Below, piece after piece: positions 9,203 to 47,047 of a stretch of 49,683 bases of DNA. A program made the translations under genes and the position numbers. Origin of the DNA: Bdellovibrionota bacterium (GTDB taxonomy: Bacteria > Bdellovibrionota_C > UBA2361 > JBGSMV01); assembly GCA_044356455.1 (NCBI GenBank), contig JBIKWF010000021.1, positions 1 to 49,683 on the forward strand, written 5' to 3'. Below the pieces are notes generated by a model. That model ran no database searches. It was given only the letters and a program-made list of their open reading frames with translations, and had not been told where the DNA came from. How positions within the stretch are numbered: the stretch's first letter is position 1; each line of letters opens with the position of its first letter.

Positions 9203-9259
9203 ACCAGTCTCCTGGCTGCACGAACACCAACCCACGAATCATTTCGATAAATTCTTAGG

Positions 9260-9275
9260 AGCAAACTTTGTGCCG
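9260..9275 (-). promoter_or_regulatory. Sigma-54 (-24/-12) promoter
   Basis: Minus strand CGGC-ACAAAGT-TTGCT, exact 7-nt spacing, upstream of 7010..9202. Confidence 0.65.
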
Positions 9276-9759: not shown

Positions 9760-9894
9760 TTAAGAGCCTGACGACACACCACAGCATTGGATATTTCATT
9801 TTTTCTCTCTGTGCCCTCTGTGGCTTTTTAAAACTTTAAGTCAACCACAGAGGGCACAGAGTTCACAGAGCGGACTTTCTCAGAGCCTCCCTAA
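9760..9894. mobile_element. MITE family A, diverged copy with 9-nt-period internal hairpin
   Basis: ttaa-gagcctg left end; ctctgtgccctctgtgg/ccacagagggcacagag 17-bp stem; right end tttctcagagcctcc-ctaa resembles tttttcagaggctcc-ctag/ctaa of the other copies. Confidence 0.65.
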
Positions 9895-15094: not shown

Positions 15095-15224
15095 GGTAAT
15101 TCTTTCCATTTTTGCAGGATGCGATTTGGAATGGATGAAATGATCTGAGGCAGTTTTGGTCATGCAGCAGATAGTGTTTTAGGTGTGGTGGTAAGTTCCG
15201 CGCAATTCCTTAGGGAACTTGCGT

Positions 15225-26190: not shown

Positions 26191-26291
26191 GCGGCAATCC
26201 AAGCGGCAAAATAACCGGCATATTTTTAGAAGTTGAACCATCTAACATATTGATATAAATTGTTAATGTAGCATCTACTGAGCGGCAAAAT
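26191..26291. promoter_or_regulatory. Direct-repeat operator array plus IHF site upstream of fic
   Basis: gcggcaa/gcggcaa/ccggcat at 12-bp period (26191, 26203, 26215); agcggcaaaat repeated exactly at 26202 and 26281; WATCAANNNNTTR match on the minus strand at 26243-26255. Confidence 0.5.
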
Positions 26292-27489
26292 GGAACGCAT
26301 TTTACTACCTGATTTGATGGAGCCTTTGCTTCCGCCGCCTGGCTCTCGGCGGCTAGAAGATCTCGCTGTTGAGCTTATTGCTCGCAACGCAAGCCTTGCC
26401 GGAAAGATTTCAAAAGAAACCGTCGGTGCCGTTTCGAAGCTAGTTCGCTCGATGAATTGTTACTACAGCAATCTAATAGAGGGGCATAACACTCACCCAG
26501 TCGACATCGAGCGCGCGCTTAACGGTGAATACTCTAAGGAACCCGCTAAGCGAAATCTGCAACTCGAGGCATTTGCTCATATCGAGGTTCAGGCGCTCAT
26601 AGATAGCGGGGATGTCGAGCTCTCAAGAATAACATCGTGGAACTATATCTCGTGGCTCCACAAAGAGTTTTGCAAACGACTTCCGGAGGAGCTTCTTACT
26701 AGTCGCGATCCGGAAGCCAAGAAAGAAGTGCAGGTCTTACCCGGAGCCCTCCGCAGCGACGAGGTAATTGTCGGTAATCATTTGGCTCCAGTTGCATGCG
26801 AGCTGCCGAAATTTCTGGCGCTTTTTGAGAGGCGCTACAACGCAGTTGAGCTTTCCGCATTAATGCGTGTGATTGCAGTACCTGCTGCCCATCATCGACT
26901 TCTCTGGATCCATCCTTTTGTCGATGGAAACGGTCGAGTTGCAAGACTATTCAGTCACGCCTTTCTAAAGACGATCGGAGCTGGTAGCGGACTGTGGTCG
27001 ACCTCTCGTGGACTTGCGCGGAATGTATCGGAATATAAAGAGCGCCTGGCTGGTGCGGATCGCTGGAGAGAACACGATACTGATGGTCGAGGAAGCTTAA
27101 GCCTTGCTGGACTTATTGAGTTCTGCGAATTTTTTCTTACGACTTGCATCGATCAAGTAAAATTCATGGAAACGCTTCTCGAGCCGGGGATGCTAACTGA
27201 GCGGGTACGCGAGTATTGCGCTAAACAGGTGCAGATCAAGGCACTACCACGCGGATCCTTTGAGCTCCTGCGCGAACTAATTCTTTCCGGCTCGGTCGCG
27301 CGCGCGAGGGTGCCCTCAATTACGAACTACCAAGAACGCCAAAGCCGTACCATCGTATCAGAACTAATCAAGCGTGGATTACTACAGTCGGAATCCACTC
27401 GCGCGGAATTAAGGCTTCACATTCCCTATAATGTGGTTGAAAGTTGGTTTCCACGCCTATATCCACCCCTTCAGCCCGGTGCCCTCTAA
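26290..27489 (+). CDS. fic: Fic family protein with N-terminal inhibitory motif and C-terminal HTH-like region
   Basis: Canonical HPFVDGNGRVAR; SNLIEG matches the (S/T)xxxE(G/N) auto-inhibitory helix. Confidence 0.92.
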   Translation: MERILLPDLMEPLLPPPGSRRLEDLAVELIARNASLAGKISKETVGAVSKLVRSMNCYYSNLIEGHNTHPVDIERALNGEYSKEPAKRNLQLEAFAHIEVQALIDSGDVELSRITSWNYISWLHKEFCKRLPEELLTSRDPEAKKEVQVLPGALRSDEVIVGNHLAPVACELPKFLALFERRYNAVELSALMRVIAVPAAHHRLLWIHPFVDGNGRVARLFSHAFLKTIGAGSGLWSTSRGLARNVSEYKERLAGADRWREHDTDGRGSLSLAGLIEFCEFFLTTCIDQVKFMETLLEPGMLTERVREYCAKQVQIKALPRGSFELLRELILSGSVARARVPSITNYQERQSRTIVSELIKRGLLQSESTRAELRLHIPYNVVESWFPRLYPPLQPGAL

Positions 27490-28633: not shown

Positions 28634-28742
28634 ATGACAACCTATTCGCTTATGCAGCGCGAACCACCACACCTTGATTACTATTTGGGTTATTAGGCTT
28701 GATCGAGAAAAAGTGGCCTAAAGAGGGCCCGAGACAGAAGAA

Positions 28743-31064: not shown

Positions 31065-31108
31065 GCCTTTCCTTTACTCGTAAGGCACGGACACCCAGAT
31101 CGATTGAG

Positions 31109-31124
31109 AGCAACCTTTGTGCCA
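31109..31124 (-). promoter_or_regulatory. Sigma-54 promoter
   Basis: Minus strand TGGC-ACAAAGG-TTGCT, near consensus and nearly identical to the promoter at 9260-9275. Confidence 0.75.
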
Positions 31125-41104: not shown

Positions 41105-41998
41105 CTAGGGGCGCGGGGGAGTCCCAAGCTTCTTAGGCCGCCCCTTGCGAGCTCGCTGGGCAACCTCGGAAATAGAAACATTTGCCGCAGGCAACACTGG
41201 GCTCGTAAGAGAGAACGCAGAGAGTACCACACGGGCACGAGCGGATTCTTGCTGCTCGCGCGCGACATCGGGGCTGATGTCGGCATCACACGTCGCAATA
41301 AACTCGCGCGCGCGCCTATGAAACTCGCGACCTTCACGTAAAAGCCACTCCCGTAAACGAGGAACTTCAGAGGCAAAAATATTGTCAAATTCCGTGTGTA
41401 AGTGAAGATTCTTTATGGAAGCCGGCGCTTCTATGTTCTCCAAGAATCCCGAAAGATGATCGCTCAGCCCCCGATTAAGAATTTCAAAAGCTTTGGTGGA
41501 GTCCTTTTGCACGTCACTCACTTCGCTCAGTAACACGACAAGATCTCCGTCCCTGCGTGCGAATCCGAGCTGCTCGAGCTGAAAAAGCGCCGCTTGAGGC
41601 GTGAGAGTGGGGTCGACCTCAGCCACCAAATTCCGAAATTCACTCGGCTCACCGCTCACCTTGAGCGGACGTGGCTTCCCATGAGAATCTCGGAACTCAC
41701 TTCGATGTTGCCACATGCCAACGATACTTCCGACGGCGCTAATAGGCCGATCTCCAACTTCGATAGAATGAGCGGCGGCAGACTTTGCAATCTCAGTTCG
41801 GTGAATTCCAGTAAGCGCGGCGAGGCGACTAAGATTTACGGTCTCCCCTCGTCTTGCGATCTCATCGGCAGCGGTCTGAATGAAGATCTCCTTACCAAAG
41901 GCCACATAGGCCTGGAAGTTAAGCCCGCGCCGCACGAGTACCCTTATAACGGGGCGTAACACGGCTCTTACAAGTTGTTGGAATTGTCCGCTAACCAT
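41105..41998 (-). CDS. DUF6502 family protein (putative DNA-binding) with C-terminal AT-hook-like tail
   Basis: LRPVIRVLVRRG...K..FI..A...NLSRLAALTGIHRTEI...W...FRD..GKPRPL...F..LV pattern; C-terminal RKGRPKK. Confidence 0.8.
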   Translation of the reverse strand: MVSGQFQQLVRAVLRPVIRVLVRRGLNFQAYVAFGKEIFIQTAADEIARRGETVNLSRLAALTGIHRTEIAKSAAAHSIEVGDRPISAVGSIVGMWQHRSEFRDSHGKPRPLKVSGEPSEFRNLVAEVDPTLTPQAALFQLEQLGFARRDGDLVVLLSEVSDVQKDSTKAFEILNRGLSDHLSGFLENIEAPASIKNLHLHTEFDNIFASEVPRLREWLLREGREFHRRAREFIATCDADISPDVAREQQESARARVVLSAFSLTSPVLPAANVSISEVAQRARKGRPKKLGTPPRP

Positions 41999-42157
41999 CT
42001 ATAGTTACAAGGGGAATCATTGAATTGTTGTAACATAGGCAAATTCGACAGACGACGGACATTCCTTTATGAAATTCGCCCCTATTTTCTTATCATCTGC
42101 CTAAATAATAGTCTTATAGATTACATTTTTACGGCACTATCTGAATTAAATGAATAA

Positions 42158-42207
42158 TATCAAGCTATTAATTTTCGCAAATAAATGATATAAAAATGAC
42201 ATTTTTA
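42158..42207. promoter_or_regulatory. IHF site and adjacent AT-rich palindrome
   Basis: tatcaagctatta matches WATCAANNNNTTR (42158-42170); taaaaatg-a-cattttta palindrome (42191-42207). Confidence 0.45.
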
Positions 42208-42356
42208 TGAAGCATTCTTCGGCAAGGGAGCGATAAGAGAGTATACGTACTTCGCACTGCTTGTCGAAAGTCCTAAGGGACATAGAACACGCAGGGCAGA
42301 GAGTATCCCGCTGGTGAATATACGGAACATCAGCCGGTGCCAAGGAAGGAGCATCC

Positions 42357-42642
42357 CTCATGAGGTGTCATGGAGTGGGGACGTGCACAAATAAACATGA
42401 ACTGCGCGGACACACCCACCCCAATTTTGGTGAACGGATTTCACCGAGTTTCTAGTGCACCCTCCTCTCCTTGAGACTTCATGAGCGTTCCGAACCCAAG
42501 CGCCTCGCTATGAGGTGTCAAGGTGTGGAGGCGTGCACGAAAGAACAAGAACTGCGCGAACACACCCACCCCAATATTGGTGAACAAACTTCACCAAGTT
42601 TTGAGTGCAACCTCCACACCTTGAGACTTCAGCGCGAGGTGC
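42357..42642 (+). ncRNA. Candidate structured ncRNA made of two tandem ~122-nt hairpin units
   Basis: Ungapped direct repeat 42360-42481 / 42510-42631 (103/122 identical by hand count, 150-nt period); long closing stems, a compensatory change, and G-U pairs valid on the + strand only. Confidence 0.55.
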
Positions 42643-42687
42643 ATCCTCTTTTCATTTTCATCTTTCTAGCCATCTGCGCGTAGACAA

Positions 42688-42705
42688 AATTTACACGTGT
42701 AAATT
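42688..42705. promoter_or_regulatory. Perfect 18-bp palindrome (operator/enhancer candidate)
   Basis: aatttacacgtgtaaatt, about 70-90 bp upstream of a sigma-54 promoter. Confidence 0.55.
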
Positions 42706-42775
42706 GAGATCATATTTCATGCTTCACGATACGATGCGCAGTAGTTCCCAAATGATTTTTTCGCCGAAATTTTTG

Positions 42776-42791
42776 TGGCACAGGCTTTGCT
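42776..42791 (+). promoter_or_regulatory. Sigma-54 promoter
   Basis: TGGC-ACAGGCT-TTGCT, near consensus. Confidence 0.75.
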
Positions 42792-42898
42792 TAAATTCTT
42801 GCTTATCGGAGTGGGTATCCGCGCAGAGACTACGGAGTGACGTATGATTCTCTGCATTACATTTTCGCTGGTTGGCATTTTTCAGGCAGGAGGCGCCC

Positions 42899-43657
42899 AT
42901 GCTTCTCTCCTTTAAGCCACCGGTTGATAGTCAAATTATTGCGCTTCTCGGAACCTCGCCCGGCTTGTCTGTTCCTGAGTTGCAATCTCGACTGACGGCA
43001 AATCAAACTTCAGTCTCAATCCCAGGATTGTATCGCACCTTGCGGGAACTGAGAGAACAAGGCGTGGTCATACGCTCGAGCGGCACCTTCTCGCTCTCCC
43101 AAAGCTGGCTTCGGGAAGTCGCTTCGTGGACGCGCATCGCAGCTCAGCGGCAACGGAAACAAGACCTTTCAGCGCTTCCCGTACTGCGCTCAATTGAGGC
43201 CCTTAAAGATGAGTTTTTTGAAGGCATTGTTTCACTCGTTGAAACGGGAGGGGCAAGGCAGGTTCGCATAATAGAGCGGCTCCCTATTCTTTCCTTGTGC
43301 GAGCAGGGGCCCCTCGAGCGCCTGCAGCGGGTTCTCACAGGTATGGGCTGCGTGCTTAATCACCACGCGCTTACGAGCGAGACTGAGCGCATTTGCCGAA
43401 TGTTCAAGAAAAGCGGTGTCACTCCCGCATGCGTAGTAATCATCGGAGAGCGCGCACTCATTCTTTCGTGTAATCACGAAACAGAACAAGAGCTCGCCCT
43501 TGGAACTCCCACGCCTCAGACCGTTCGCAGAATTCGTAATCGTGATGCTCGCTTCACTCTGCGCCTTGCGCACTCGAAGAAGGAGACGCACTCCGTAACT
43601 ATGGCTATCGCCTCTACGGCGACCGGAGTGGGTTGCAAGCCCGATTCTATTGATTGA
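42899..43657 (+). CDS. Winged-helix DNA-binding protein with uncharacterised C-terminal domain
   Basis: CAGGAGG RBS; LSVPELQSRL...VSIPGLYRTLRELREQGVV...GTFSLS winged-helix pattern. Confidence 0.75.
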   Translation: MLLSFKPPVDSQIIALLGTSPGLSVPELQSRLTANQTSVSIPGLYRTLRELREQGVVIRSSGTFSLSQSWLREVASWTRIAAQRQRKQDLSALPVLRSIEALKDEFFEGIVSLVETGGARQVRIIERLPILSLCEQGPLERLQRVLTGMGCVLNHHALTSETERICRMFKKSGVTPACVVIIGERALILSCNHETEQELALGTPTPQTVRRIRNRDARFTLRLAHSKKETHSVTMAIASTATGVGCKPDSID

Positions 43658-43712
43658 GAGGCACGAATTTGAACCGACGTGGGAGCTTAAACTTTTGTTG
43701 CGGTGTATGGTT

Positions 43713-46384: not shown

Positions 46385-47047
46385 ATGCCGAGAGCCGTTC
46401 TTCAATTGCATGCCCAAAGAAGGCACCTTAAGAACCTGGGGAGCCGTGGGGCAAGCACAGTTGAACTTGCAATCTTCTTTACCCTCGTGGCGGCAATTCT
46501 TGGTTCTGTCACCCTGTTTCTCACAGGCACGCTCCCTCAGATATTTGCGGCCGCCAGGTTAATTAACGCTCTTGAGGGGGCGACTCTCGTAAAGCCAAGA
46601 TTGGGAGGTCTTTTCATAACGCATCCTGCTTCTAATCATCCTGACCTGGGAATCGCTGGTAGTTCGGCTCAAGAATACTTCGCCCTCAGGAAGGAGGTAG
46701 ATGCGCTCCAAAGTCTCATGGAGTTGGCATTTCCTGGTGTTCATGCCGAACCTTTATCTTGTGTAGCAGTTTACGAAATAAAGGATCATTGCGTTCTATC
46801 CTCCGCTGATAGCCTTTACCGAACGGGTGGCAGCCTCTGTCCAGATGCAAGAATGAATCCGTGCATTATTGCCCAAGCTGAGGCGATTCTTGAAGCGAAA
46901 GGCTGTAGCCATAATGATGTAGGGTCTGTCATTCTCGCTGCACTATTCCCGCGTGAGAGCGGGCTTCTAAAGAGTCCCTGTGCGGTCAGCGAAATTGGGT
47001 ATCCGCGCTCACCCATTGTCAGGTCTTTTGCGGCGCCAAATCCCTAA
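46385..47047 (+). CDS. TadE/TadF-like pseudopilin
   Basis: Basic leader then RG|ASTVELAIFF (Glu+5) and hydrophobic helix. Confidence 0.7.
   Translation: MPRAVLQLHAQRRHLKNLGSRGASTVELAIFFTLVAAILGSVTLFLTGTLPQIFAAARLINALEGATLVKPRLGGLFITHPASNHPDLGIAGSSAQEYFALRKEVDALQSLMELAFPGVHAEPLSCVAVYEIKDHCVLSSADSLYRTGGSLCPDARMNPCIIAQAEAILEAKGCSHNDVGSVILAALFPRESGLLKSPCAVSEIGYPRSPIVRSFAAPNP

Follow-up and report, generated by a model that had tools for sequence, protein, structure and literature searches.

The window analyzed here is the whole stretch of 49,683 nt, a single contig of a lake-derived genome of 4.7 Mb (52.5% GC, 93% complete), and by its tetranucleotides it is somewhat atypical, ranking 40 of the 47 large contigs. 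It carries a tandem pair of similar units, located between a DUF6502 gene and the gene of a winged-helix protein. The features of this locus are the following:

41105-41998, minus strand: DUF6502 gene, divergent neighbor of the tandem units and one of 14 DUF6502 family members in the genome
42348-42491, plus strand: unit 1, a predicted structured RNA (core 42360-42481 with stem-extending flanks)
42402-42426, plus strand: C/A-rich loop of unit 1, a pairing seed predicted from the fold and from leader complementarity
42426-42448, plus strand: apical hairpin of unit 1, flagged as terminator-like, with a weak U tract
42500-42642, plus strand: unit 2, a predicted structured RNA (core 42510-42631 with stem-extending flanks)
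42552-42576, plus strand: C/A-rich loop of unit 2, a predicted pairing seed with one G/A difference from that of unit 1
42577-42597, plus strand: apical hairpin of unit 2, flagged as terminator-like, with a weak U tract
42636-42668, plus strand: possible 3′ end of the transcript, a 4-bp hairpin with a U-rich tail (−5.1 kcal/mol)
42776-42791, plus strand: sigma54-type −24/−12 box of the downstream transcript, with the full consensus; rpoN is present in the genome
42808-42826, plus strand: predicted target site in the leader next to the units, at −36 to −18 relative to the 23-codon ORF, found with an inverted-repeat finder and by duplex energy
42844-42915, plus strand: candidate 23-aa hydrophobic leader ORF (GRAVY 1.66), a prediction that overlaps the start of the winged-helix gene
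42899-43657, plus strand: winged-helix protein gene, TrmB-like by Atlas structure look-alikes, with weak HTH Pfam matches below the cut-off

The product of the 23-codon ORF would be uncharged and hydrophobic, and the ORF is preceded by a ribosome site; its exact sequence was absent from the protein collection and it matched no Pfam family. For the winged-helix protein one homolog at 51% identity (P0002) was found; for the gene that follows at 43686, a search of 30 relatives gave no match. Several smaller features surround the units. A sigma70-like promoter match (10/12) at 42240-42267 on the minus strand is directed at the DUF6502 gene. A perfect 18-bp palindrome (42688-42705) precedes the sigma54-type box at 42776 by about 70 nt and is a candidate site for an enhancer protein or for autoregulation; palindromes of 15-18 bp occur upstream of several winged-helix homologs in relatives as well. 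Near-identical, near-palindromic sequences of 10-13 nt stand on both sides of the pair (42347-42359 and 42636-42648), and might be the scar of a duplication or a pair of regulatory sites.

The ungapped alignment of the two units was confirmed as reported in the preliminary description of this DNA (42360-42481 with 42510-42631, 122 nt, 19 differences, 84% identity, period 150). The long closing stem, the tgcac/gtgca helix and the 8-bp apical hairpin are all present as described there, and flanks that differ between the units do prolong each stem, to about 42348-42491 and 42500-42642. The one-sided bulge of about 24 nt is obtained if a marginal 4-bp helix is allowed; otherwise the fold has a bubble of about 38 nt against 7 nt. 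In the predicted fold of unit 2, part of the loop is able to pair with the 5′ arm. Both units are much more stable than expected on the plus strand (folding z of −4.83 for unit 1 and −9.41 for unit 2) and on the minus strand (−3.30 and −7.64), and in each of these four folds none of 200 shuffles was as stable as the real sequence. The units had also been called covarying, which was not confirmed: the 37 pairs include one compensatory, two one-sided and three broken changes, and 234 of 500 shuffles did equally well. The wobble pairs, said to be G-U on the plus strand, do favor that strand, although not cleanly, with about six G-U against two A-C positions in a hand count.

In two other lake runs (X2 and X4), one contig each spans the whole pair with zero differences, so it is not an assembly artefact. 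When the substitutions between the units were classified, they fell on 7 of 74 paired positions, 2 of 24 positions of the loop motif and 10 of 24 other unpaired positions. Fisher tests with these classes, which were drawn after the data were seen, gave p 0.017 for the motif and p 0.0009 for the paired positions, each against the other unpaired positions. Since the substitutions spare the stems and the loop, this pattern suggests that selection acts on the stems and on the loop sequence. Coding of small peptides by the units was rejected: their short ORFs differ between the copies in start or stop, and in a hand reading the codon changes were mostly non-synonymous. A promoter scan found no plus-strand promoter upstream of or near unit 1, and the terminator-like hairpins (2 found, 0.9 expected) are not a significant excess. 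Judged by its sequence, the tandem element is real and apparently under selection.

We then compared the units with known families and searched for homologs. The earlier description had not recognized them as a tRNA, 6S, SRP, riboswitch or CRISPR repeat, and no covariance model of Rfam 15 reached its gathering threshold in the window, the best E-value within 41500-43500 being 3.4. Neither blastn, nhmmer nor the covariance model detected a third copy in the genome; the many dispersed copies with target-site duplications expected of a MITE are thus not seen, as there are two copies and no clear duplication. Among specific candidates, SRP RNA was rejected, as RF00169 had no match in the units and the SRP RNA of the genome lies on contig C121; the tmRNA is also located elsewhere. 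Y RNAs usually adjoin a Ro60/TROVE gene, and no TROVE (Ro60) match was found in this genome (93% complete), so this candidate was rejected too. An RNA-rich gap after ahcY in the same genome is unlike the units (scores of 32-45 against a background of 38 ± 4). Among 100 relatives blastn recovered no true homolog (one 30-nt match, E 0.005), and the covariance model of the units gave no match in 140 relatives, the same genus included. Applied to fetched loci (in one round 29 loci, from a list with more matches than loci), the model gave only plain-hairpin matches. A search for the loop pattern returned nothing in viral contigs or GTDB genomes and four matches in metagenomes, none of them with the structure; in 123 other genomes of the phylum the loop patterns occurred at about control level. 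Phage and plasmid collections had no blastn match, no homologous winged-helix locus carrying the units was confirmed in GTDB or viral contigs, and low-share sequencing runs yielded the same species or unrelated short matches and nothing else. In the literature, within the scope of titles and abstract openings, we found no description of these RNAs; a search directed at this uncultured lineage found no sRNA regulon.

The loop of both units is complementary to the leader of the adjacent winged-helix transcript. The site, 42808-42826, would start about 6 nt and end about 24 nt behind the inferred transcription start of the sigma54-type box at 42776. The predicted duplex with unit 1 (−32.4 kcal/mol) was equaled by 12 of 12,000 random 255-nt windows and that with unit 2 (−26.2 kcal/mol) by 167 of 12,000, while shuffled loops matched them in 0 and 2 of 2,000 cases, respectively. 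Among seeded genomic sites, its rank was 50 of 10,924 with unit 1 and 479 of 10,800 with unit 2; taken alone, the complementarity to this site is modest evidence. Cofolding of the full RNAs returned no stable duplex, by a method unable to model pairing between loop and leader. It had been proposed that the units form a module with the proteins encoded on both sides. For the winged-helix protein, the link that stood is one between RNAs, the loop being complementary to its leader. The link to DUF6502 was not supported: the leader of that gene ranked 521 of 3,488 (the start used lay downstream of the probable one), 14 members of the family occur in the genome, and none of eight DUF6502 genes of relatives had a direct repeat upstream.

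Further predicted sites were found in leaders of other genes of the window:

9216-9235, minus strand: predicted target site of a PKD-domain gene (start 9202), −33 to −14, with a sigma54-type box upstream at 9260-9275
31085-31097, minus strand: predicted target site of a second PKD-domain gene (start 31064), −33 to −21, with a sigma54-type box upstream at 31109-31124
28657-28673, minus strand: predicted target site of a gene of 343 aa (start 28633), −40 to −24, to which the 3′ arm of unit 2 is also complementary
15182-15204, plus strand: predicted target site of a gene of 964 aa (start 15225), −43 to −21
46996-47008, plus strand: weaker motif match before a TadE-like gene (start 47058), −62 to −50, a doubtful target

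The loop is complementary to these G/U-rich sites over 12-18 bp. Five of the sites, the adjacent one included, lie between −43 and −14 of a start codon, and all six, counting that of the TadE-like gene, are in the sense orientation. Where the sites vary between C and T, the loop has a G opposite, in keeping with G-U pairing. The products of the predicted targets are diverse: the two PKD-domain proteins (9202 and 31064) are alike in their N-terminal region only, that of the 9202 gene being signal-peptide-like, and the other two (28633 and 15225) have no Pfam or NCBIfam match. Also within the target cluster, at 26290-27489 on the plus strand, we noted a Fic/DOC-like protein, identified by a motif read from the translation, which may be a marker of a mobile origin of the region.

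To place these sites in the genome, we ranked leaders by their predicted pairing with the loop. In a first ranking of all 3,488 leaders, three of the top 15 came from this contig. With a 19-nt core of the loop and 100-nt leaders, contig genes ranked 2, 4 and 5 of 3,585, and the best antisense rank was 546; the top-six statistic of this ranking was reached by none of 344 shuffled cores, and with a looser count statistic 16 and 58 of 344 shuffles equaled the real result. We also applied a uniform start rule with a window from −50 to −10, which thereby omits the adjacent site and which 23 of the 34 contig genes passed. Under this rule (best antisense rank 242) the contig leaders ranked 1, 3, 4 and 39 of 2,572 with the full loop and 1, 3, 4 and 12 of 2,572 with the core. 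The enrichment of the own contig had p values of 2.5e-6 and 2.1e-5, to be read knowing that the windows, the 19-nt core and the motif were picked after the sites had been seen and that gene starts came from a crude caller of our own. Controls made with random intergenic 25-mers, which were not composition-matched, reached p ≤1e-3 in 0 of 77 and 1e-2 in 3 of 77 cases. Moreover, two motif patterns occur in the window six times (two of these being the loops themselves) and three times, against about 0.8 expected for each; shuffles did as well in 0 and 5 of 100 cases, figures that are descriptive since the patterns were derived from the sites.

The best predicted target outside the contig, rank 2 of 2,572, belongs to contig C112 and is a type IV pilin-like gene. 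In its leader (C112:31336-31380, plus strand) 11 continuous bases pair with the loop of unit 2, and a long hairpin covers the ribosome site. The strongest pairing with the core (−35.4) was seen at C197:14080-14100 (plus strand), about 70 nt before the start of a gene that, from reading its sequence, we take to be FabZ-like.

The 3′ arm of the units behaves in a similar way. That of unit 2 pairs with the 28633 leader at −34.7, but costs 21.8 to open, and under the uniform start rule the 3′ arm likewise ranks contig leaders 1 and 5, a result that could be explained by shared ancestry. The motif was absent from all 10 homologous 28633 leaders inspected (nine from relatives, one of them truncated, and one from a paralog of 60% identity in the same genome), which indicates that the pairing is recent and regional. 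Such tight clustering of targets near the RNA gene is unusual for a diffusible RNA.

Three of the five leader sites (adjacent, 9202 and 31064) sit just behind sigma54-type boxes, defined by the −24/−12 consensus. The contig carries five of the 45 strict boxes of the genome (p 1.4e-4), and four of these five have TGGGT within 30 nt downstream. In the whole genome KGGGT, a pattern chosen after the fact, follows the box in 7 of 45 cases, against 67 of 1,616 in 60 relatives. Across 51 other sigma54 leaders, pairing with the loop is stronger than in ordinary leaders; as shuffled loops equaled this shift in 33 of 231 and 15 of 347 cases, a genome-wide sigma54 regulon was mostly rejected as compositional, and our claim is limited to the local set of targets. 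Upstream of 29 winged-helix homologs in relatives we found no sigma54 box, and a fold z below −4 in one (L013, z −6.2, in an AT-rich window). In the sigma54-type promoters, positions 14-19 nt past the −12 box are enriched in G, which reaches 48% among 52 sites, possibly a promoter or leader feature of this organism. Many sigma54-type promoters of the genome precede large, secreted-looking orphan proteins.

Taken together, we consider it probable that the units are Hfq-independent sibling sRNAs, read from the plus strand, which pair with these leaders. The earlier description had a plus-strand RNA displaying a conserved loop for pairing or for protein binding: of this, the plus-strand RNA with a loop for pairing is supported by computation, and candidate targets were identified. 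The RNA would be transcribed as one molecule of 300 nt or as two of 140 nt. Processing into units by RNase III, whose gene is present in the genome, is possible. Neither hfq nor zapA was found in any of five family genomes (Hfq, 0/5); Helicobacter pylori is not known to have Hfq. In an apparently Hfq-free cell, the long closing stem would both hold the seed open and protect the RNA. Pairing, over 12-18 bp, would begin where the G/U stretch of the leader is unpaired, close before the ribosome-binding site, and would set translation; the net interaction energy at the five main sites, after opening both partners, is predicted at about −8 to −17 kcal/mol. The loops differ by one G/A position, which may split the targets between the units, since unit 1 pairs better with the adjacent and 31064 leaders and unit 2 with those of 9202 and 28633.

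As for the direction of the effect, in the folds predicted for the three sigma54 leaders a hairpin covers the ribosome site and has the 3′ end of the target site at its base. By pairing there, the loop would invade this hairpin at its 5′ base; as the hairpin conceals the Shine-Dalgarno sequence and the start codon, we lean to activation. Occupancy of the site lowers the cost of opening the ribosome site by 3.9-11.6 kcal/mol in these three leaders, by 1.7 in the pilin leader, and not at all in those of 28633 and 15225; the combined p of the activation test was 0.04, or 0.086 when GC-matched. On these models, activation is favored by a slight margin over repression, in which pairing would block the stretch ahead of the ribosome site. 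In the adjacent leader, pairing would act directly on the 23-codon ORF, and translation of that ORF might in turn unfold the ribosome site of the winged-helix gene.

The arms of the units suggest a further step. The 5′ arms resemble the target motif and leaders, and the loop and the 3′ arm also resemble each other. Predicted pairing energies of the 5′ arm are −21.5 and −24.5 with the loop of its own unit and −35.5 and −44.5 with the 3′ arm, and opening the seed is predicted to cost 4.2 and 2.0 kcal/mol in the full units against 9.7 and 11.4 in RNAs cut at the apical hairpin. Thus, the 5′ arm might mask the seed until the 3′ arm has been transcribed. Given the weak U tracts and the number of terminator-like hairpins, not significantly above expectation, such an attenuation switch is speculative. 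The fullest version of the model, in which the units are Hfq-independent activators acting in their own neighborhood by a toehold-like opening of sigma54-driven genes for secreted proteins and of the pilin gene, with the seed masked unless transcription reads through the internal terminator-like hairpin, strikes us as rather doubtful.

A different reading of the same matches is that a protein recognizes the shared motif, either as a DNA operator present in leaders and units and possibly bound by the winged-helix or DUF6502 protein, or on a minus-strand sponge of the CsrB type. The minus strands of the loops and the plus-strand 5′ arms carry the leader motif, the minus strand folds well too (z −3.3 and −7.6), local clustering fits a locally encoded regulator, and there are palindromes upstream of some winged-helix homologs. 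We nevertheless consider this reading unlikely: none of the six leader sites is antisense, five keep their distance to the start codon, not to the promoter, and matches of 12-18 nt whose variation is compatible with G-U pairs speak for RNA. DNA operators do not need stems of 30-40 bp with a G-U bias, and part of the loop's reverse complement pairs with itself.

It is less probable still that the units and the leader motifs are relics of one short, locally copied sequence, REP- or MITE-like or produced by inverted duplications of a leader, the tandem pair being a by-product with no regulatory role. Such an origin would fit a genome rich in dispersed hairpin families (536 candidate long hairpins) and close tandem repeats, the confinement of the element to one species, and the resemblance of the 5′ arms to two leaders and of the loop to the 3′ arm. 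It would leave unexplained that there are just two copies and no clear target-site duplication, that substitutions avoid the stems and the loop and strike other unpaired positions, that both stems are extended by different flanks, and that the matches keep their distance to the start codons of unrelated genes.

We also weighed a locus resembling type I toxin-antitoxin systems, in which both RNAs would be antitoxins that block the 23-aa peptide, as AgrA and AgrB do for dinQ. Tandem RNAs do adjoin a transcript with a matching leader, followed by a short hydrophobic ORF with a ribosome site, and the layouts of dinQ-agrAB and timP-timR are similar. This explanation is very improbable, as the genes here are co-directional and not divergent, and the pairing is of 15-17 interrupted bp, against 25-30 of 31 nt (Agr) and 18 continuous (TimR). 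Besides, other leaders match too, and the ORF overlaps the start of the regulator in the manner of a leader peptide; searches for a family or a database copy of it found none.

Finally, the units might be shortened, divergent 6S RNAs, that is, promoter mimics that bind RNA polymerase. A 6S RNA is about 180 nt long and has a two-sided bubble that is followed by a long apical helix; the units share with it a long closing stem and a central bubble. Rfam 6S was found in none of 41 lineage genomes and not upstream of ygfA in the five checked, so that the 6S role is vacant or hidden; as far as these models can tell, the 6S RNA of the lineage is absent or unrecognized. The units make an extremely poor candidate for it, at 130-145 nt, with an apical helix of 8 bp, a strongly one-sided bubble, no RF00013 score even at E 10, and no counterpart in the same genus, where a housekeeping RNA would be expected.

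Among known systems, sibling sRNAs offer the nearest parallels to the pairing RNAs that we propose. OmrA/OmrB of E. coli, AbcR1/AbcR2 and PrrF1/PrrF2 are tandem related RNA genes with a common seed, as are, by our prediction, the units here, which are about 84% alike (PMC4211561). AbcR of rhizobia sits between regulator genes, and PrrF1/PrrF2 of P. aeruginosa have a read-through form, PrrH; a read-through form is possible at our locus too (PMC4211561). In contrast to the siblings described there, the units have no sequence or Rfam similarity to them, their seed lies in an internal bubble closed by a stem of 30-40 bp, Hfq was not found, and the predicted targets cluster on the same contig (PMC4211561).

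A C-rich loop that pairs with a G-rich leader site, as predicted here, has its counterpart in RepG of Helicobacter pylori, which acts on a G-rich element upstream of the ribosome site and leads to repression or activation (PMC8295292). RepG itself is one RNA and acts through its terminator loop on a homopolymeric G repeat, whereas here there are two copies, an internal loop, a mixed G/U motif and several leaders (PMC8295292). GlmZ of E. coli pairs in two parts with glmS at about −42 to −20 of the start codon and opens a hairpin that hides the Shine-Dalgarno sequence (PMC2267818). The likeness to GlmZ/GlmY lies in a similar position of the site, two look-alike RNAs and the opening of a hairpin, which here is a prediction; GlmZ needs Hfq, the GlmZ and GlmY genes are far apart and one of the RNAs pairs, whereas here both carry the seed and activation is weakly predicted (PMC2267818). 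With dinQ-agrAB and timP-timR the locus shares one or more adjacent RNA genes, duplicated in agr, which are complementary to the leader of a transcript for a small hydrophobic peptide; in contrast to them, it is co-directional and its pairing is shorter and interrupted, with several further predicted targets (PMC3567139, PMC7667032).

An RNA and its likely targets can here be read from one genome, and the predictions are made at the level of single bases and are directly testable. If the proposed pairing is true, the surprises would be that the targets lie within 40 kb of the RNA genes, and that a target-like arm masks the seed of its own RNA during synthesis. Should the clustering reflect local action and not shared history, it would bear on whether position on the chromosome limits targeting by sRNAs in cells without Hfq.

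Two observations concern repeats elsewhere in the genome. Several abundant families of REP/MITE-like hairpins of 110-180 nt occur genome-wide, for example at 9810-9890 of the window, alongside the 536 long-hairpin candidates. Most of the non-coding close tandem repeats adjoin tRNA or tmRNA genes (contigs C74, C79, C107, C134, C146, C150, C160, C168, C177 and C200).
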